Shown here: positions 3,772-22,616 of the stretch, one piece after another | Layout: each line of letters begins with the position of its first letter | Position numbering within the stretch: the first letter of the stretch is position 1 | IMG/VR virus record: IMGVR_UViG_2531839529_000008 | DNA length: 23,343 nt | Origin: a virus | Lineage: Duplodnaviria > Heunggongvirae > Uroviricota > Caudoviricetes | Reading direction: 5' to 3' (one strand) | Position numbers and translations under genes: made by a program | Notes under the pieces: model-generated | Databases searched by the model: none | What the model was told of the DNA's origin: nothing | What the model saw: only the letters and a program-made list of their open reading frames with translations

Positions 3772-3965
3772 TCTGCTTTTCCTGCATCAGGAGAAAGACA
3801 ATCATGGCGGCGCGGATACTTCCGGTATCTTTTTACGCGATATTCCCCTTCAATGGCACATACAAGAAGAGAGCCATCAACAGGAGTGATTGAGGAATCG
3901 ACAACCAGCAACGCTTAATTATCTATAGTGTCGTATTTGCTTCATAAAATATGGCGAATAACACA

Positions 3966-3998
3966 AAGCCCGCAGCAGCTCATTGTGCGGGCTTTTCT
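3966..3998. terminator. GC-rich hairpin (gcccgca...tgcgggc) with a T-rich tract on the plus side; candidate terminator bounding the 4065-4679 gene
   Basis: Inverted repeat read directly at 3968-3992 followed by ttttctta; direction ambiguous. Confidence 0.35.
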
Positions 3999-5545: not shown

Positions 5546-5827
5546 TCATCGTTCCTTAAAGACGCCGTTTAACATGCCGATTGCCAGGCTTAAATGAGTC
5601 GGTGTGAATCCCATCAGCGTTACCGTTTCGCGGTGCTTCTTCAGTACGCTACGGCAAATGTCATCGACGTTTTTATCCGGAAACTGCTGTCTGGCTTTTT
5701 TGATTTCAGAATTAGCCTGACGGGCAATGCTGCGAAGGGCGTTTTCTTGCTGAGGTGTCATTGAACAAGCCCCATGTCGGCAAGCATAAGCACACAGAAT
5801 ATGAAGCCCGCTGCCAGAAAAATGCAT
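5546..5827 (-). CDS. Hypothetical early protein at the lambda orf61 position (alternative start at 5761 gives 71 aa)
   Basis: Track ORF in the pL operon upstream of exo; start codon uncertain. Confidence 0.45.
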   Translation of the reverse strand: MHFSGSGLHILCAYACRHGACSMTPQQENALRSIARQANSEIKKARQQFPDKNVDDICRSVLKKHRETVTLMGFTPTHLSLAIGMLNGVFKER

Positions 5828-16780: not shown

Positions 16781-16917
16781 TGTTTGAGTTTAATATGGCA
16801 GAACTTCTTCGCCACCGCTGGGGGCGTCTGCGCTTATATCGTTTCCCCGGTTCTGTTTTGACCGATTACCGAATACTGAAGAATTACGCCAAAACACTGA
16901 CAGGAGCAGGAGTATGA
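16777..16917 (+). CDS. ylcG: YlcG-like small protein (46 aa)
   Basis: Hand translation [46 protein letters not shown]; start overlaps the rusA stop. Confidence 0.5.
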
Positions 16918-17002
16918 AGTCAGAGATAACAATCAACTAATACTGTTTTGTTGATTTTTGCTTGTAATTGGCGTTCTGGTCTGAGTTTTGTGGAGTAAGT
17001 TG

Positions 17003-17380
17003 ATGCGTGATATTCAGATGGTTCTTGAGCGTTGGGGAGCGTGGGCGGCTAATAATCATGAAGATGTGACCTGGTCGTCCATTGCCGCCGGTTTTAAGGG
17101 ATTAATTCCTTCAAAAGTAAAATCTCGCCCACAATGTTGTGACGATGACGCGATGATCATTTGCGGGTGCATGGCCCGTCTGAAAAAGAACAACAGCGAT
17201 TTGCATGATTTATTGGTGGACTATTATGTCGGCGGCATGACTTTTATGGCGCTTGCACGTAAGCATGGGCGATCTGATTGTTGGGTTGGCAGGATGCTTC
17301 AGAAAGCTGAGGGCGTAGTGGAGGGTATGCTGATGGTGTTGGATCTCCGATTGGAGATGGATGCTGATTGTTCGAAATAA
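17003..17380 (+). CDS. Q: Late-gene antiterminator Q, phage 82 / DLP12 QuuD type
   Basis: Track ORF 16988-17380 with likely start [18 protein letters not shown]; recognised as QuuD-like. Confidence 0.85.
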
Positions 17381-17479
17381 TTAAAGGAAAAGTTGCTGTC
17401 TGATTGTCATTAGTCTAACATTTTAAATGTTGGAATCACAACGTAGTTATTATCATATAACAGCTTGTTTCCTGATTTA
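17381..17479 (+). promoter_or_regulatory. Inferred PR'/qut late promoter region between Q and the downstream hairpin
   Basis: Position only, by analogy with lambdoid late regulation; promoter hexamers not confidently assigned. Confidence 0.3.
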
Positions 17480-17508
17480 GCCAGCCTCCCCAAAGGCTGG
17501 TTTTTTTC
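17480..17508 (+). terminator. Rho-independent terminator (tR'-like) downstream of Q
   Basis: Hairpin ccagcc-tccccaaa-ggctgg followed by TTTTTTT (17501-17507). Confidence 0.7.
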
Positions 17509-17535
17509 TAATAAGTATTATTTCGGGTAGGGATT

Positions 17536-18060
17536 TTATTGTTTAACCCATAATAATTCATTGACATTGAATCCCAACTTTTGAGCGGTTCGCACATAGT
17601 CTGCTTTTACTTTATCTGGAATAGTTGGGGTCCTTGCCAGAATCCATAGGTATTCTCTGTTCGGACCACTGACAAGAGCATACTTATACTCATCATCCAG
17701 TTTGATTACATTATAGCCACCATAGAAGGGGCCAAAAAACGAAACCTTCAATGCTGCAGTTTTAGTATCTCCAGTAAAGTATGCTTTACCTTCGCTCTCG
17801 CTCCATTTATTTTTCGTTGGATCGTATCCACGGTTAAGTACACGAATCCCTCCGTCGTTCCGTTTTCCATAAGTAGCGCTGACCTGTTCCAGACCACGTT
17901 CGAACCGGTTCTCGAGGCGAGCTATTTCATACCATTTTCCGAGGTAGCGGTTGGCGTCAAAATTTGTAATCGGCTGCACACCTTTAGGTGGTGTCGGGGC
18001 CTTACATGCTATAAGAGTGAAAGAGAGTGCAATGCCAGTCAACACAGGCCATAACTTCAT
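17536..18060 (-). CDS. Blc-like bacterial lipocalin, outer-membrane lipoprotein (174 aa)
   Basis: Track ORF; lipobox LIAC; lipocalin motifs (NFDANRYLGKWYEIAR, TAALKVSFFGPFYGGYNVI) recognised as a paralogue of E. coli Blc; transcribed opposite to late genes. Confidence 0.85.
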   Translation of the reverse strand: MKLWPVLTGIALSFTLIACKAPTPPKGVQPITNFDANRYLGKWYEIARLENRFERGLEQVSATYGKRNDGGIRVLNRGYDPTKNKWSESEGKAYFTGDTKTAALKVSFFGPFYGGYNVIKLDDEYKYALVSGPNREYLWILARTPTIPDKVKADYVRTAQKLGFNVNELLWVKQ

Positions 18061-18252
18061 AATAAATCCTGTACTTTTGATAGTTGAGAGTAAGTATGAA
18101 AGATAGATGATTACGACCGATCACTTAAAGAACTTTCATACTATATTAGGAATAGTCCATAACAGAAAAATTGTCAGTGATGACGCCAGAAAGGCAATTT
18201 ATTCCGTGCACTACACAGTTTATGTGTTAATGAATTAGTCAAGGGGGAGAAT

Positions 18253-19212
18253 ATGATAAAAAAACCTGTGATTGGAATCAGCGGTTGTTTGGCCGGTTCT
18301 GCTGTTCGTTTTGATGGTGGTCACAAAAGAGCTGACTTTTTAATGGACAAATTAGTGGAATGGGTAACATTCAGACCAGTATGTCCGGAAATGGCTATAG
18401 GGCTGCCAGTTCCGCGTCCTGCTCTACGTCTTGTGCGCTCGATGCAAGGAAATATACGGATGTGTTTCAGCCACGACCAGAATGAGGATGTGACAGAGAG
18501 AATGACAGAGTTTAGTCGTTCTTATATGGACAAATTAAAGGATGTATCGGGGTTTGTGGTTTGTGCTAAATCTCCCAGCTGTGGCATGGAGCGCGTGCGT
18601 GTCTATGATGAAAATGGTAATCGAGGTCGTAAAGATGGAGTGGGACTATTTACGAGCACTTTGATGGAAAAGTTTTCCTGGCTACCGGTTGAAGAGGATG
18701 GGCGATTACATGATCCAGTGCTTCGTGAGAATTTTGTTGAAAGAGTTTTTGCTTTGCATGAGCTCAATCACCTTTACAAGGAGAAATTATCAAGAAGAGA
18801 GTTATTAGCTTTTCATAGTCGTTATAAGCTTCAGTTGTTGGCGCATAGTCAGGCAGGCTATAAAGATATGGGACCATTTGTGGCTGCAATACACGAGTGG
18901 GCGGACCTTGAATCATACTTTGAGGTGTATCGTGATAAGCTGATGGCGATTCTCAGAAAACCTGCATCACGTAAAAATCACACGAATGTGCTGATGCATA
19001 TACAGGGGTATTTTAGTAACTACTTAAGTACACGCCAGCGTAAAGAGTTGAGCGAGGTTATACTTAACTATCGTTCTGGCACATTACCTCTTCTTGCGCC
19101 GTTGACTCTGCTGAAGCATTATCTGGGTGAGTATCCTAATGATTACTTGCTTACACAGAATTACTTCGATCCCTATCCGGACGAACTGGCTCTAAGACTG
19201 ATGGTAAATTAA
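18253..19212 (+). CDS. DUF523 (TudS-like Fe-S desulfidase) fused to DUF1722, 319 aa; RudS/YbgA-like
   Basis: Track ORF with strong Shine-Dalgarno (AAGGGGGAGAATATG); conserved Cys residues in the N-terminal half (GISGCLAG, VCPEM, SPSCGME); domain call from memory. Confidence 0.7.
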   Translation: MIKKPVIGISGCLAGSAVRFDGGHKRADFLMDKLVEWVTFRPVCPEMAIGLPVPRPALRLVRSMQGNIRMCFSHDQNEDVTERMTEFSRSYMDKLKDVSGFVVCAKSPSCGMERVRVYDENGNRGRKDGVGLFTSTLMEKFSWLPVEEDGRLHDPVLRENFVERVFALHELNHLYKEKLSRRELLAFHSRYKLQLLAHSQAGYKDMGPFVAAIHEWADLESYFEVYRDKLMAILRKPASRKNHTNVLMHIQGYFSNYLSTRQRKELSEVILNYRSGTLPLLAPLTLLKHYLGEYPNDYLLTQNYFDPYPDELALRLMVN

Positions 19213-19563
19213 TTGTATGCGATATCATCCAAAAGGATGAGTTCCTGCATGCAGGATATTTACAATCGTAAAAACTACACTATGATACCCAGAGTGTCAG
19301 TTTGTATAAAAACTCTGTTTACGCTGAAGAAACAATTGAGATGCAACTTAAAGTTGGTAAACATGCCAGTCAAAATATATAATATTATGATTCCACGCAG
19401 CTATATATAATATAACAGATTGGTTTAATAATTTGTCTTTGTGAGTTAAATACATAATTTTATACTTGTGATGTAATGAAATTTTCCTTATTGTTGAACT
19501 GGCGAATATTGATTTTCCACCTATACTTACCTGGTGTAACCCCAATGATATCAGGTGGATAAT

Positions 19564-20294
19564 ATGCCATACATATGTTCTATCATTTTGGTGTTGAATT
19601 CGTTTGATGTCCGAATTGGTAAAGAAGATATTTTGTTTAAAAAAGGAAATGCTGTTCTCATTGATTACAATTTAAAAGATTTTTTTCATCAAATATAGAT
19701 CATGTAATGATCGTAGATGTTGAAGAAAAAACAGTTAATGATTTCTTTAAAAGCAACACACTCTCACCTTTTTCTGTAAGAAGGTTTTATCCGGCATACT
19801 TGATGGTGGAATGTGAAGATTTTTCATTGTTAAAGAACTTGATTGCATGCTTGAATTGTGATGGCAGAACTGTGGATTTTGTTAGAAATCAAATATCACT
19901 TGCATGTCTTGCTATCTTATCTTCAGAGAAAATAGTGCAAAGTTTTTTATTTGGATGTCTTAATAGTTTAGGAAGTAAAGTTAAGGCTATTATTCACACG
20001 GATATATCTGCAGCATGGAGACTTTGTGATATATCTTCAAGACTGTATCTGAGTGAAAGTCTGTTAAAAAGAAAATTAAAGCACGAAGGCTTATCATTTA
20101 GTAAGTTAATTCTTGAAGAGCGAATGGTGATGGCGGAAAGCTTATTAAGCTACAATTTATATTCTGTTGGAAAAGTTGCTGAGATATGCGGTTATGAAAA
20201 CACGTCATATTTTGTAAGTGTTTTCAGAAGGTATTTTGGTGTTCCTCCCCATCAATATTCATCAAGATTTTTTTTAGAAAAAGACATGATGTAA
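19564..20294 (+). pseudogene. AppY-like AraC-family transcriptional regulator, disrupted: 44-codon N-terminal fragment (19564-19698) then a 195-aa C-terminal ORF (19707-20294) in another frame
   Basis: C-terminal AraC-type HTH (GYENTSYFVSVFRRYFGVPPHQY); N-terminal fragment MPYICSIILVLNSFDVRIGKEDILFKKGNAVLI resembles the AppY N-terminus; stops in all three frames at 19696-19712; very AT-rich. Confidence 0.6.
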
Positions 20295-20481
20295 CGTGAT
20301 GCGTTTTAATGATTTTGTAATTTTCGTATTTGATAATTGTATGATGCTTTCAGCTACGCCAGAATAATCGCGGCGTTTTTCTTTTTGAATAGATGTTCAA
20401 GCCTTACGCTAATGTAACTTCTATACCTTTCCTCTTCGTTCCGAACCGTGTACACCATCCGTTATTTGCGGAGGTGAGGCT

Positions 20482-20697
20482 ATGAAATCCATGGATAAGT
20501 TAACAACGGGCATTGCCTACGGCACCTCCGCAGGCAGTGCTGGCTACTGGTTTTTACAGCTGCTCGATAAAGTCACGCCCTCACAGTGGGCAGCAATAGG
20601 TGTGCTGGGTAGCTTGGTATTTGGCCTGCTGACGTACCTGACAAACCTTTATTTCAAGATTAAAGAAGATAAGCGCAAGGCTGCGAGAGGTGAATAA
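20482..20697 (+). CDS. essD: Class II holin (pinholin), phage 21 S / DLP12 EssD type, with dual-start motif MKSM
   Basis: 71-aa track ORF recognised as S21-like; Met1-Lys-Ser-Met4 dual start. Confidence 0.9.
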
Positions 20698-21194
20698 TGC
20701 CTCCATCATTACGAAAAGCCGTTGCTGCTGCTATTGGTGGCGGAGCAATTGCTATAGCATCAGTGTTAATTACTGGCCCAAGTGGTAACGATGGTCTGGA
20801 AGGTGTCAGCTACATACCATACAAAGATATTGTTGGTGTATGGACTGTATGTCACGGGCATACAGGAAAAGACATCATACTCGGTAAAACGTATACCAAA
20901 GCAGAATGCAAAACACTCTTGAATAAAGACCTTGCCACGGTCGCCAGACAAATTAACCCGTACATCAAAGTCGATATACCGGAAACAACGCGCGGCGCTC
21001 TTTACTCGTTCGTCTATAACGTGGGCGCAGGCAATTTCAGAACATCTACTCTTCTTCGCAAAATAAACCAGGGCGATATCAAGGGCGCATGTGACCAGCT
21101 ACGTCGCTGGGCATACGCTGGCGGTAAGCAATGGAAAGGCCTGATGACTCGTCGTGAGATTGAGCGTGAGGTCTGTTTGTGGGGGCAACAATGA
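20697..21194 (+). CDS. rrrD: SAR endolysin (phage lysozyme), R21 / RrrD type
   Basis: 165-aa track ORF; N-terminal Gly/Ala-rich signal-arrest-release segment ([18 protein letters not shown]); start overlaps the holin stop. Confidence 0.9.
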
Positions 21195-21658
21195 GCAGGG
21201 TAACCGCGATTATCTCCGCTCTGGTTATCTGCATCATCGTCTGCCTGTCATGGGCTGTTAATCATTACCGTGATAATGCAATCGCCTACAAAGAACAGCG
21301 CGATAACAAGGCCAGTGAACTGGAGAAGGCGAACGCCACCATTACTGACATGCAGCAGCGCCAGCGTGATGCTGATGCACTCGATGATAAATACACGAAG
21401 GAGTTAGCTGATGCGAAAGCTGAAAATGATGCTCTTCGGCGCAAGCTTGATAATGGTGGTCGGGTGCTCGTCAAAGGAAAATGCCCTGTGCCATCCTCAG
21501 CCGAAACCTCCAGCGCCTCCGGCATGGGCAATGATGCCACCGTCGAACTCTCTCCAGTTGCTGGACGAAACGTTCTCGGTATCCGGGACGGAATTATCCG
21601 CGACCAAACAGCACTGAGAACGCTTCAGGAATACATCAGGACGCAATGCCTTCGATGA
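21191..21658 (+). CDS. Rz: Rz i-spanin
   Basis: Internal start [12 protein letters not shown] of track ORF 21179-21658; N-terminal TM segment then coiled-coil region. Confidence 0.85.
21411..21617 (+). CDS. Rz1: Rz1 o-spanin lipoprotein embedded in the +1 frame of Rz
   Basis: Track ORF inside Rz; lipobox VVGC; proline-rich mature part; exact start among the N-terminal Met codons uncertain. Confidence 0.7.
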
Positions 21659-22149: not shown

Positions 22150-22560
22150 TTAGTGCGGAAATATTTGTGTAGTGTTCTGAATGTTCTCAGTAAAGAGTAA
22201 TGAATTATCAAAGGTATAGTAATACCTTTTGTTTTCGTGGATATTTGTAATCCATCTGAAAACCCCTGCTGTAGCAAGATTTTTCCTGTATTCGTAAAAT
22301 GATAACTCTCCTGATTTGAATCCTTTTAAGGTGGCTTCTATAAGGCATTTATTTTTTGAAAATCTTACATTTACAACCTTACCCTGTCCTTTTATTAAAA
22401 CCGTATTATCGTTTTCAAGAACAAGATGAATATTCTCTGTAGCTAAATAGTAAATGTAATGTGAGACATTGTGACGTTTTAGTTCAGAATAAAACCAGTG
22501 ATAGTTTAAATTATTTCGCACTTTATCGAATATTTGTTTAAAAATGGCAACCTGAGCCAT
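22150..22560 (-). CDS. ybcV: YbcV-like protein (DUF1398, annotated in DLP12 as putative envelope protein)
   Basis: Internal start [11 protein letters not shown] of track ORF 22150-22575; recognised as DLP12 YbcV-like. Confidence 0.7.
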
Positions 22561-22616
22561 TGTAGTACCTTCCATGTGATATGAGGGGCGTAGTCTGCAC
22601 GATTATCTAAATTGCT

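Follow-up and report, generated by a model that had tools for sequence, protein, structure and literature searches.

Here we describe rudS, an intact 319-aa ORF (18253-19212, plus strand, ATG start) in a 23,343-nucleotide stretch of DNA from a Caudoviricetes virus (IMG/VR record IMGVR_UViG_2531839529_000008; here referred to as the window), whose product, judged from its sequence, is probably a RudS-type [4Fe-4S] tRNA 4-thiouridine desulfidase. The gene belongs to a moron block that is tied to one allele of the antiterminator gene Q (Q - tR' - lipocalin - rudS) in SOS-inducible lambdoid prophages. It is real and correctly read, yet its kind is already known, and as an annotation the finding repeats published knowledge on the phage protein RudS_vir. 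What is added here is the carriage of rudS by about 20% of complete E. coli genomes, the Q-lipocalin-rudS block, purifying selection on the gene, the loss of its regulator and operator, and its position on the late transcript. The original prediction had placed the gene at 18061-19212; the end of this span is accurate, but position 18061 is the first intergenic base and the gene starts at 18253.

A TudS-like N-terminal half with conserved cysteines and a DUF1722 C-terminal half had been proposed for this protein, and a Pfam search recovered both domains with E values of about 1e-40. PF04463 (2-thiouracil desulfurase, equivalent to DUF523/TudS) covers residues 7-149 (E value of 4.5e-40; 137.4 bits versus a cutoff of 34.7) and PF08349 (DUF1722) covers residues 192-309 (E value of 5.8e-41; 140 bits versus a cutoff of 22.5), with DUF1722 fused C-terminal to the TudS/DUF523 domain within the single ORF. 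Both scores are far above chance. The proposed membership in the RudS-type family likewise agrees with the domains, with the conservation of catalytic residues, and with 93% identity to an assayed RudS. Cysteines are found at positions 12, 44, 71, 104, and 110; all three [4Fe-4S] ligands, C12, C44, and C110, are kept and are invariant in 34 orthologues. The RudS catalytic set E46, R55, S107, and S109 is present within the motifs C-P-E, P-R-P, and K-S-P-S-C, and in alignments of 30 to 34 enterobacterial orthologues E46, R55, and S107 are invariant along with the ligands, while S109 is at least 90% conserved. In the DUF1722 domain, S239-R240-K241 and T244-N245 are invariant among orthologues, N242 is invariant in one alignment, and H243 is at least 90% conserved. 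The tRNA-contact residues of this domain in RudS_KT are S243, R244, and T246 (PMC11417400), for which the stretch from 239 to 245 is a candidate counterpart.

RudS_KT (Pseudomonas putida PP_0741), which has the two-domain architecture in common with the window protein, converts s4U to U on tRNA both in vitro and in vivo, makes the UVA growth delay shorter, and loses activity upon mutation of C17/C49/C114, E51, R60, S111, or S113 (PMC11417400). These residues correspond to C12/C44/C110, E46, R55, S107, and S109 of the window protein, a correspondence made by motif and by offset from the cysteines rather than by direct alignment with this distant orthologue. The tRNA-contact loop reads R24-Y25-N26-G27 in RudS_KT and R19-F20-D21-G22 in the window protein. 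The N-terminal domain also matches TudS (DUF523; PDB entries 6Z92/6Z96), with E values of 2.3e-4 for a single-sequence search and 5e-6 for a profile search, and the two proteins have the cluster ligands and the catalytic Glu in common. The likeness extends to the fold: TudS (6z96_A) was the sole meaningful PDB match to an AF2 model of the window protein (probability of 1.00, target TM score of 0.60, and E value of 1.8e-2). The model has a pLDDT of 69.2 and a pTM of 0.63, and its cluster-binding loops are modeled at low confidence; it offers moderate support for a TudS-like fold of the catalytic domain.

Two simpler identities were considered and rejected. TudS is a single-domain [4Fe-4S] thiouracil/4-thio-UMP desulfidase of about 160 aa that acts on free bases and nucleotides and leaves tRNA s4U unlowered in vivo (PMC11417400). 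The window protein is not a stand-alone TudS (about 150 to 170 aa), as it has 319 aa and a second domain and scores 17.9 bits with the NCBIfam TudS-related model. The model for E. coli YbgA, a stand-alone DUF1722 protein encoded in the ybgA-phr operon, matches the window protein well (E value of 1.4e-56), but this match is limited to residues 160-315 and the PRK10167 score of 190.8 bits lies below the equivalog cutoff of 237. YbgA is without the catalytic domain and without effect on s4U (PMC11417400).

Among the known relatives, RudS_vir from the lambda-like Escherichia phage 1H12 (H3V29_gp66) is 93% identical to the window protein (298/319); both have 319 aa and Cys12/44/110, and none of the 21 substitutions is at a catalytic residue. 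The cassette of phage 1H12 matches that of the window (Q - lipocalin - rudS - AraC-like - holin), with about 90% identity in the intergenic and downstream regions, except that the AraC-like gene, whole in 1H12, carries a frameshift in the window. Viral RudS genes have already been noted in the literature, and RudS_vir, when synthesized and overexpressed in E. coli, lowered tRNA s4U (Jamontas et al., Nucleic Acids Res 2024, PMC11417400). The original statement that no phage role had been characterized thus needs qualification, since this phage copy has been assayed, but it holds for the role of the enzyme in phage or lysogen biology. Chromosomal enterobacterial RudS proteins (among them Salmonella RudS_ST and that of Enterobacter cloacae) also have 319 aa, are 66 to 76% identical to the window protein, and have the same catalytic residues; overexpression of RudS_ST (STM1389, ORF319; a type that is 74% identical) cut E. 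coli tRNA s4U 18-fold (PMC11417400).

It is conceivable, but in our view unlikely, that small molecules (4-thiouracil, 4-thiouridine, or 4-thio-UMP) are the main substrates of the phage enzyme, in salvage or detoxification, with its action on tRNA being a side activity. Such substrates could come from tRNA turnover or from outside uptake and enter pyrimidine salvage. Consistent with this idea, RudS_vir had the shortest lag on free 4-thiouracil among six RudS enzymes in a uracil auxotroph, and its activity on tRNA fell short of that of RudS_ST and RudS_KT although soluble protein was plentiful (PMC11417400); the TudS domain and its catalytic residues are, in addition, common to the 4-thio-UMP/4-thiouracil desulfidase TudS. 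However, no RudS, RudS_vir included, gave TudS-like growth on thiouracil, and tRNA s4U was lowered by every RudS and not by TudS (PMC11417400). A small-molecule enzyme would also sit poorly with a DUF1722 domain, tRNA binding in RudS_KT, that is kept intact with many invariant columns (for example, S239, R240, and T244) and with a whole-gene dN/dS of 0.11.

We favor a model in which RudS desulfidates 4-thiouridine of host tRNA (s4U8/9) back to uridine. By the mechanism of the family and the conservation of the residues, C12, C44, and C110 of the N-terminal TudS domain would hold the [4Fe-4S] cluster, the free fourth iron would bind the thiocarbonyl sulfur of a flipped-out s4U, and a water molecule activated by E46, itself positioned by R55, S107, and S109, would attack C4, with the sulfur departing via a [4Fe-5S] intermediate. 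The helical DUF1722 domain would grip the tRNA at the anticodon arm. No tRNA genes, sought as possible RudS substrates, were found in the window.

The gene sits in a lambdoid (lambda-like) E. coli prophage at att-lambda, where it lies between the antiterminator Q and the holin, in keeping with the predicted placement in a Q-S hotspot. Upstream, Q (16988-17380, plus strand; 130 aa from a TTG start) matches PF06530 (Phage_antitermQ) with an E value of 2.5e-51; in related genomes it is annotated as 378 nt. It is followed by an intrinsic terminator (17479-17510, plus strand), a 9-bp GC-rich hairpin and a T7 run, whose predicted RNA fold of -14.9 kcal/mol was not matched in stability by any of 200 shuffled sequences (z = -3.6) and whose exact sequence recurs in 69 of 84 phage-type loci. 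In a scan of 16900-20800, this was the sole terminator-like site on the plus strand between Q and the holin gene, and by analogy with lambdoid architecture it probably acts as tR'. An Rfam search of 16800-20800 gave nothing at gathering score, its single match (28.6 bits) being the same hairpin. The next gene (17536-18060, minus strand) encodes a 174-aa Blc-like outer membrane lipocalin lipoprotein (PF08212, E value of 7.2e-44; NCBIfam Blc subfamily, 316 bits versus a cutoff of 267). As had been predicted, it is divergent from rudS, from which a 192-bp intergenic region (18061-18252) with the putative promoters of both genes separates it. The lipocalin gene is intact in 79 of 80 IMG/VR loci and has a dN/dS of 0.06 relative to the 1H12 allele.

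Downstream of rudS, an AT-rich spacer (19213-19554; 32% GC) that differs between alleles leads to a gene for an AraC/YdeO/GadX-like regulator (19555-20294, plus strand; 31% GC). In the window the loss of 1 nt from a T run near 19690 splits this gene into ORFs 19555-19698 and 19707-20294; it is also annotated as frameshifted in genomes with 100% identity, while the intact form, gp67 of phage 1H12, has 243 aa. The lysis cassette follows on the plus strand, with a P21-type holin gene S (20482-20697), the lysozyme gene R (20697-21194), and Rz (21179-21658); its Pfam domains are PF04971, PF00959, and PF03245, and it is annotated as essD/rrrD. The repressor of the window prophage is an S24 LexA-like protein, so that induction is expected after DNA damage, including UV. 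Strain ATCC 43896 has 100% identity to the window in the cassette only, and its integrase is truncated, while that of the window is intact; the window does not come from this strain.

Cargo in the Q-S region, between Q/pR'/tR' and the lysis genes, is familiar from stx in Stx phages and nmpC in DLP12. Like these morons, the window cargo lies between Q/tR' and the lysis genes and is predicted to be cotranscribed late after antitermination; unlike them, it consists of a tRNA modification eraser and a lipoprotein rather than a toxin or a porin. The placement of rudS between Q/tR' and the holin gene is typical of a lambdoid Q-S moron, and the arrangement is alike in 76 to 77 of 80 IMG/VR loci. The distances from Q to the lipocalin gene and to rudS are fixed in 77 of these 80 loci, and Q, the lipocalin gene, and rudS move as one block.

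A near-ideal ribosome binding site had been noted for rudS, and a Shine-Dalgarno-like AAGGGGGAG is indeed present at 18241-18249, 3 nt before the ATG; with its AAGGGGG paired to the anti-Shine-Dalgarno sequence, the spacing is 5 nt, and the description as a strong site is fair. The 192-bp intergenic region is about 90% or more conserved across three phage alleles. A small ORF within it (18107-18238; 43 aa) was rejected as a gene, since in the 1H12 allele it is shortened to about 31 aa and it has no Shine-Dalgarno sequence. A sigma-70 consensus scan upstream of rudS found 9-of-12 matches at best, which were no commoner than in shuffled sequence. We suggest that some rudS transcription would start in the divergent region in lysogens and that, after induction, the Q-antiterminated late transcript would read rudS in sense, as it does stx in Stx phages. 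No terminator-like site was found in the spacer 19213-19554 after rudS; transcription in a lysogen would therefore head toward the lysis genes if it is neither weak nor halted by Rho or H-NS in the AT-rich spacer.

The same data could be read to mean that the late transcript is essentially the sole source of RudS and that the enzyme serves the lytic cycle and not the lysogen, remodeling the tRNA pool during late protein synthesis or, in a variant of the idea, taking away a feature of tRNA that some host response uses. This is in line with the sense orientation of rudS in the path of the Q-dependent transcript, with the tR'-like terminator alone between it and Q and no terminator between it and S, R, and Rz, as well as with the strict linkage to one Q allele, the lack of a detectable good sigma-70 promoter upstream of rudS, and a repressor that would respond to DNA damage. 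On the other hand, lambda growth is mildly impaired when s4U is eliminated by deletion of thiI (PMC3296357), which argues against a simple lytic benefit of s4U erasure. Moreover, erasure cannot mend tRNAs that are already cross-linked, the late phase is short, and rudS is intact beside degraded lysis or structural modules, for example in the Qin-like remnant L003 and in the defective ATCC 43896 prophage. A protein identical to the divergent lipocalin (WP_000780581.1) was detected in the proteome of E. coli CCUG 70745, where it rose 2- to 3-fold after meropenem (PMC13459554); this points to expression of the cassette in a lysogen, with the lipocalin gene active in a culture that was not induced. 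We consider a purely lytic function improbable, though less so than the small-molecule role, and regard a contribution to host fitness (lysogenic conversion) as the more likely reason for the retention of rudS. Protection of late phage translation after induction by sunlight is a possible second benefit.

Chromosomal copies of rudS suggest what the phage cassette has lost. On enterobacterial chromosomes, as in the window, rudS commonly has a divergent gene for a Blc-like lipocalin as its partner, and it adjoins a MerR regulator gene in Enterobacter cloacae. A MerR gene is located upstream of rudS in 44 of 64 chromosomal loci, 42 of which have the order lipocalin<>MerR...rudS, and 43 of the 64 loci scanned on chromosomes or plasmids have a palindrome (ACTTnnACAA-N8-12-TTGTnTAAsT) that in most cases lies some 60 nt upstream of the gene. 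In contrast, a pattern search for this operator found it in none of 84 phage-type loci, and no MerR homologue is present in the window or in the other phage-type loci. The phage cassette, with its late-operon position and its divergent lipocalin<>rudS pairing kept, thus resembles the enterobacterial lipocalin<>MlrA-like MerR-uraH-rudS module minus the regulator gene and the palindromic operator, and phage rudS would be freed from the light or stress control of its chromosomal cousins. Two candidate repeats in the intergenic region resemble the chromosomal palindrome, an imperfect AAAATTG-N21-CAATTTA at 18168-18203 and ACTACACA-N5-TGTGTTAAT near 18208-18233. Control of phage rudS by host MlrA/BluR was nevertheless rejected, as these repeats are unlike the operator in spacing and are not kept in 1H12 and the operator is absent from all 84 loci; at most they are a relic. 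Other chromosomal rudS genes are unlike the phage copy in that they end a SnoaL-SDR-amine oxidase-DUF1365-CFA synthase-DUF2878-DUF3833 operon, and RudS_KT is under LitR/photolyase light control in Pseudomonas (PMC11417400). A search for the cassette donor identified none, and dS was saturated; the best chromosomal matches are 76% identical for RudS (Citrobacter) and 82% identical for the lipocalin (Leclercia/Enterobacter). In Citrobacter sedlakii, the two genes are adjacent (lipocalin<>rudS), with a 187-bp spacer unrelated to that of the phage.

Of 5,426 complete E. coli genomes, 1,111 to 1,183 (about 20%) carry rudS, while the literature, including reviews up to 2026, holds that E. coli is without RudS. 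Phage alleles, which have diverged at about 29% of their synonymous sites, show a dN/dS of 0.11 between them, and rudS is under purifying selection. These data make it very unlikely that rudS is a neutral passenger of the Q allele or the lipocalin gene that brings no benefit, as does its full-length presence in so many genomes with invariant catalytic residues. A passenger would nonetheless account for the fixed spacing to Q and the lipocalin gene, for the decay of the neighboring AraC-like gene (intact in 60 and broken or absent in 20 of 80 IMG/VR loci), and for the occasional disruption of rudS without obvious consequence, by an IS1 insertion in H33 and an IS3 truncation in a BL21 derivative. 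It would also suit the gut, the main habitat of E. coli, which is dark; the dark habitat and the disruptions also count against the model that we favor.

No bacterial eraser of a tRNA modification was known before RudS, and s4U8 serves the cell as its near-UV sensor. Under the model that we favor, less tRNA s4U would lead to fewer UVA-induced s4U8-C13 cross-links, shorten the near-UV growth delay, and weaken the stringent response. If rudS is expressed, the tRNA s4U content and UVA responses would vary between E. coli strains with prophage content, and a temperate phage would edit the tRNA modification state of its host. The proposal that a prophage rudS alters the UV or stress responses that control induction is speculation; the thiI deletion result (PMC3296357) points in the opposite direction. 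In the boldest version, which we put forward tentatively and think rather unlikely as a whole, a captured tRNA modification eraser has come off MerR-type stress or light control and into a Q-dependent late operon, about one-fifth of E. coli strains are depleted of s4U either constitutively or upon induction, lysogens skip the near-UV arrest and the stringent response, and late translation continues in sunlight. Sunlight would then both induce the phage, through UVB, SOS, and cleavage of the S24 repressor, and cross-link host tRNA through UVA. Were this true, rudS would be a phage-encoded epitranscriptomic switch that makes E. coli strains differ in their light and stress physiology.

A search of the literature on prophage RudS, DUF523, or DUF1722 found nothing beyond the RudS paper (PMC11417400), and a PADLOC defense system search matched none of the three proteins RudS, lipocalin, and AraC-like regulator. 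In RefSeq, the phage RudS protein carries the label "YbgA family protein."

The segment 18061-19212 contains an open reading frame on the plus strand (18253-19212, ATG start, 319 amino acids), here referred to as rudS, with bases 18061-18252 forming the intergenic region that it shares with a divergent minus-strand gene (17536-18060). The original prediction was that the product has a TudS-like N-terminal half and a DUF1722 C-terminal half, as in RudS enzymes, and the domain search it proposed revealed both: PF04463 (2-thiouracil desulfurase, formerly DUF523) at residues 7 to 149 (Pfam, E = 4.5e-40) and PF08349 (DUF1722) at residues 192 to 309 (E = 5.8e-41). The full RudS catalytic set is present, with the cluster ligands C12, C44, and C110 as well as E46, R55, S107, and S109; among 30 to 34 enterobacterial orthologues, six of these seven residues never vary, S109 being the exception with a conservation of 90% or more. 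The counterparts in RudS_KT from Pseudomonas putida are C17, C49, C114, E51, R60, S111, and S113, respectively, and their substitution abolished tRNA desulfidation (PMC11417400). TudS (PDB 6z92) is the only sequence match of the window protein among solved structures and the only meaningful structural match of its AlphaFold model (probability of 1.00, TM score of 0.60 on the target). This model, for which 30 orthologues were used as input, has a pLDDT of 69 with the cluster loops at low confidence, as expected since the cofactor is absent from the model. The testable defining features of RudS, namely both domains, the three cysteines, the other catalytic residues, and (with moderate support) the TudS-like fold, were found in the window gene. 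Its product is not a stand-alone TudS, nor is it a YbgA: RefSeq calls it a "YbgA family protein," but the score of 190.8 bits is below the cutoff of 237.

The window protein is identical at 298 of 319 positions (93%) to gp66 of Escherichia phage 1H12, which is the RudS_vir protein of Jamontas et al. Taken together, the findings strongly support the view that the product of the window gene is a RudS desulfidase, that its active site is intact, and that a near-identical orthologue erases 4-thiouridine (s4U) from E. coli tRNA. The gene is thus already known, since a 2024 study had cloned and assayed a member of this phage gene family; of the earlier statement that this enzyme family has no characterized phage role, only the part concerning a role for the phage or lysogen stands. 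In that work, the RudS_vir gene was synthesized and expressed in E. coli BL21(DE3), where it lowered tRNA s4U, but to a smaller extent than RudS_ST from Salmonella or RudS_KT despite good protein levels (PMC11417400). On 4-thiouracil, the lag was shorter with RudS_vir than with any other RudS enzyme (PMC11417400), which lends some support to a salvage or detoxification function, with free thiouracil or 4-thio-UMP as the substrate; nonetheless, we consider this improbable. Ten viral RudS genes were noted by the same authors, all in siphoviruses (PMC11417400), and the 12 rudS records that we found in the phage collection are all from E. coli lambdoid phages with the same Q-lipocalin-rudS-AraC cassette.

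The window opens with ybhC, a host gene (100% identical), and continues with genes for an intact integrase of the lambda type and a LexA-like repressor (S24), indicating a lambdoid prophage that is integrated at att-lambda and inducible by the SOS response. The proposed location in the Q-S hotspot was confirmed, with antiterminator Q (PF06530, 16988-17380, plus strand) upstream of rudS and a P21-type holin, lysozyme, and Rz (20482-21658, plus strand) downstream. So were the remaining descriptive elements: the divergent gene encodes a Blc-subfamily lipocalin lipoprotein (PF08212; NCBIfam, 316 bits versus a cutoff of 267), and the near-ideal ribosome-binding site is seen as a Shine-Dalgarno-like AAGGGGGAG located 3 to 5 nt before the ATG, the spacing varying with the pairing chosen. 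Between rudS and the holin lies a gene for an AraC/YdeO/GadX-like regulator (19555-20294, plus strand, 31% GC), whose best NCBIfam match, YdeO (E = 3.8e-30), falls below its cutoff. In the window, the loss of 1 nt from a run of T's near 19690 has shifted its reading frame; it is intact in 60 of 80 IMG/VR loci and, at 243 amino acids, in phage 1H12, and at least three alleles exist. Presumably, it is akin to the Psr/PatE-type GAD-island regulators that EHEC prophages encode.

The closest chromosomal RudS orthologues, all of 319 amino acids and 66 to 76% identical to the window protein, occur in two settings. In Citrobacter and Klebsiella, rudS ends a SnoaL-SDR-amine oxidase-DUF1365-CFA synthase-DUF2878-DUF3833 operon; in loci L007 to L012 (4933-5460), a gene for a lipocalin-sized protein of 174 to 175 amino acids without a Pfam match separates the DUF2878 and DUF3833 genes. 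The second setting, known from Enterobacter, Leclercia, Lelliottia, and Serratia as well as from IS26-flanked E. coli plasmids, is a minus-strand lipocalin gene that diverges from plus-strand MlrA-like merR, uraH-like, and rudS genes; this is the MerR-RudS neighborhood that the RudS paper associated with loss of s4U under UVA in Enterobacter cloacae (PMC11417400). Plasmid p2 of E. coli BN01 (L005, 3021-5960) carries this complete module, IS26 flanked, with a second RudS that is 71% identical, and the E. coli collection gave about 60 plasmid matches. Of the 64 chromosomal or plasmid loci scanned, 43 have a palindrome, ACTTnnACAA-N8-12-TTGTnTAAsT, ahead of rudS, in most cases roughly 60 nt from the ATG; it takes the form ACTTGGACAAA-N8-TTGTGTAAGT in loci L025 (about 3935-3972) and L013 (about 5708-5755) and in 41 others, about 30 to 65 nt upstream of rudS. 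The 43 include all lipocalin-MerR-rudS loci, and the palindrome is present wherever the MlrA-like merR gene adjoins; it is probably the operator of the MerR regulator inside a MerR-type promoter. No description of it was found in the literature searched.

The phage cassette retains the divergent lipocalin-rudS pairing but lacks merR, uraH, and the palindrome (0 of 84 phage-type loci by pattern search) and has the low-GC AraC-like gene downstream instead. In contrast to its chromosomal cousins, phage rudS has lost the MerR regulator and operator and sits in the phage late operon; it appears deregulated and is placed where induction would turn it on. The only plus-strand terminator-like site between Q and the holin is a strong hairpin with a T7 run just after Q (17479-17510; -14.9 kcal/mol, z = -3.6). 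By lambdoid logic this would be tR', in which case Q-modified late transcription would cross the lipocalin gene in antisense and then read rudS and the AraC-like gene in sense before reaching S-R-Rz. The search for a sigma-70 promoter of rudS gave no convincing candidate. The lipocalin, a paralogue distinct from the chromosomal blc beside ampC and without a nucleotide-level match in most genomes, is identical to WP_000780581.1, which a 2026 proteomic study of E. coli CCUG 70745 detected, with levels 2- to 3-fold higher 15 min after meropenem addition (PMC13459554). Hence, at least the divergent partner gene is expressed, and is stress responsive, in a lysogen.

E. coli has been said to lack RudS, both in the 2024 RudS paper (PMC11417400) and in a 2026 review. 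This is true of K-12 and effectively also of BL21; however, rudS is present in 1,183 of 5,426 complete E. coli genomes, about one-fifth (1,111 with a copy covering at least 80% of the gene), and the 3-kb cassette is present in 1,153. The Qin-like prophage of the E. coli B lineage, as seen in the BL21(DE3) derivative E. coli BAP1 (L160, 4468-7057), retains Q, the lipocalin gene, and only the first 147 nt of rudS, cut by an IS3 element, so that the strain in which RudS enzymes were assayed has a defunct version of the phage gene. In all contexts inspected, including Qin-like remnants, prophages at att-lambda, and one prophage at about 4.8 Mb, rudS lies between Q and the lysis genes. Matches of 94 to 99% identity to the E. 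coli prophage genes for the lipocalin, RudS, and the AraC-like protein are also present on two short contigs (L067 and L072) of a "Candidatus Nanosynbacter" metagenome-assembled genome (D148_maxbin.008, Saccharibacteria); these are almost certainly binning contaminants rather than a real occurrence.

Across the 80 IMG/VR loci, the Q-lipocalin-rudS distances are constant and the endolysin type is variable; rudS is intact in all 80, which partly results from how the loci were chosen, Q in 77, and the lipocalin gene in 79. Comparison of the window and 1H12 alleles gave a dN/dS of 0.11 for rudS (23.5 nonsynonymous versus 50.5 synonymous changes, dS of 0.29) and 0.06 for the lipocalin gene, from which both are judged to be under purifying selection within the phage lineage. 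The value for rudS makes it very unlikely that the gene is a neutral hitchhiker. We favor a role in lysogen fitness, as rudS is intact beside decayed phage modules and shares its module with an expressed envelope stress lipoprotein. A purely late-phase role seems doubtful, since deletion of thiI mildly reduces lambda growth (PMC3296357), which counts against a lytic benefit of s4U removal. In the lysogen, rudS would be expressed from the divergent region, with additional expression from the late transcript. DUF1722 may bind the tRNA, the substrate sulfur would bind the free iron of the cluster, and water activated by E46 would attack C4; fewer s4U8-C13 cross-links and a shorter UVA growth delay would follow, and RudS_KT did shorten this delay (PMC11417400). 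It is conceivable, if rather speculative, that the phage thereby sets an epitranscriptomic switch that removes the UVA sensitivity of both lysogens and late phage translation.

Just past the lysis cassette, a minus-strand gene for a 141-amino-acid DUF1398 protein (22150-22575; PF07166, E = 3.3e-43) sits in a low-GC patch (31 to 39%) and is probably another moron.
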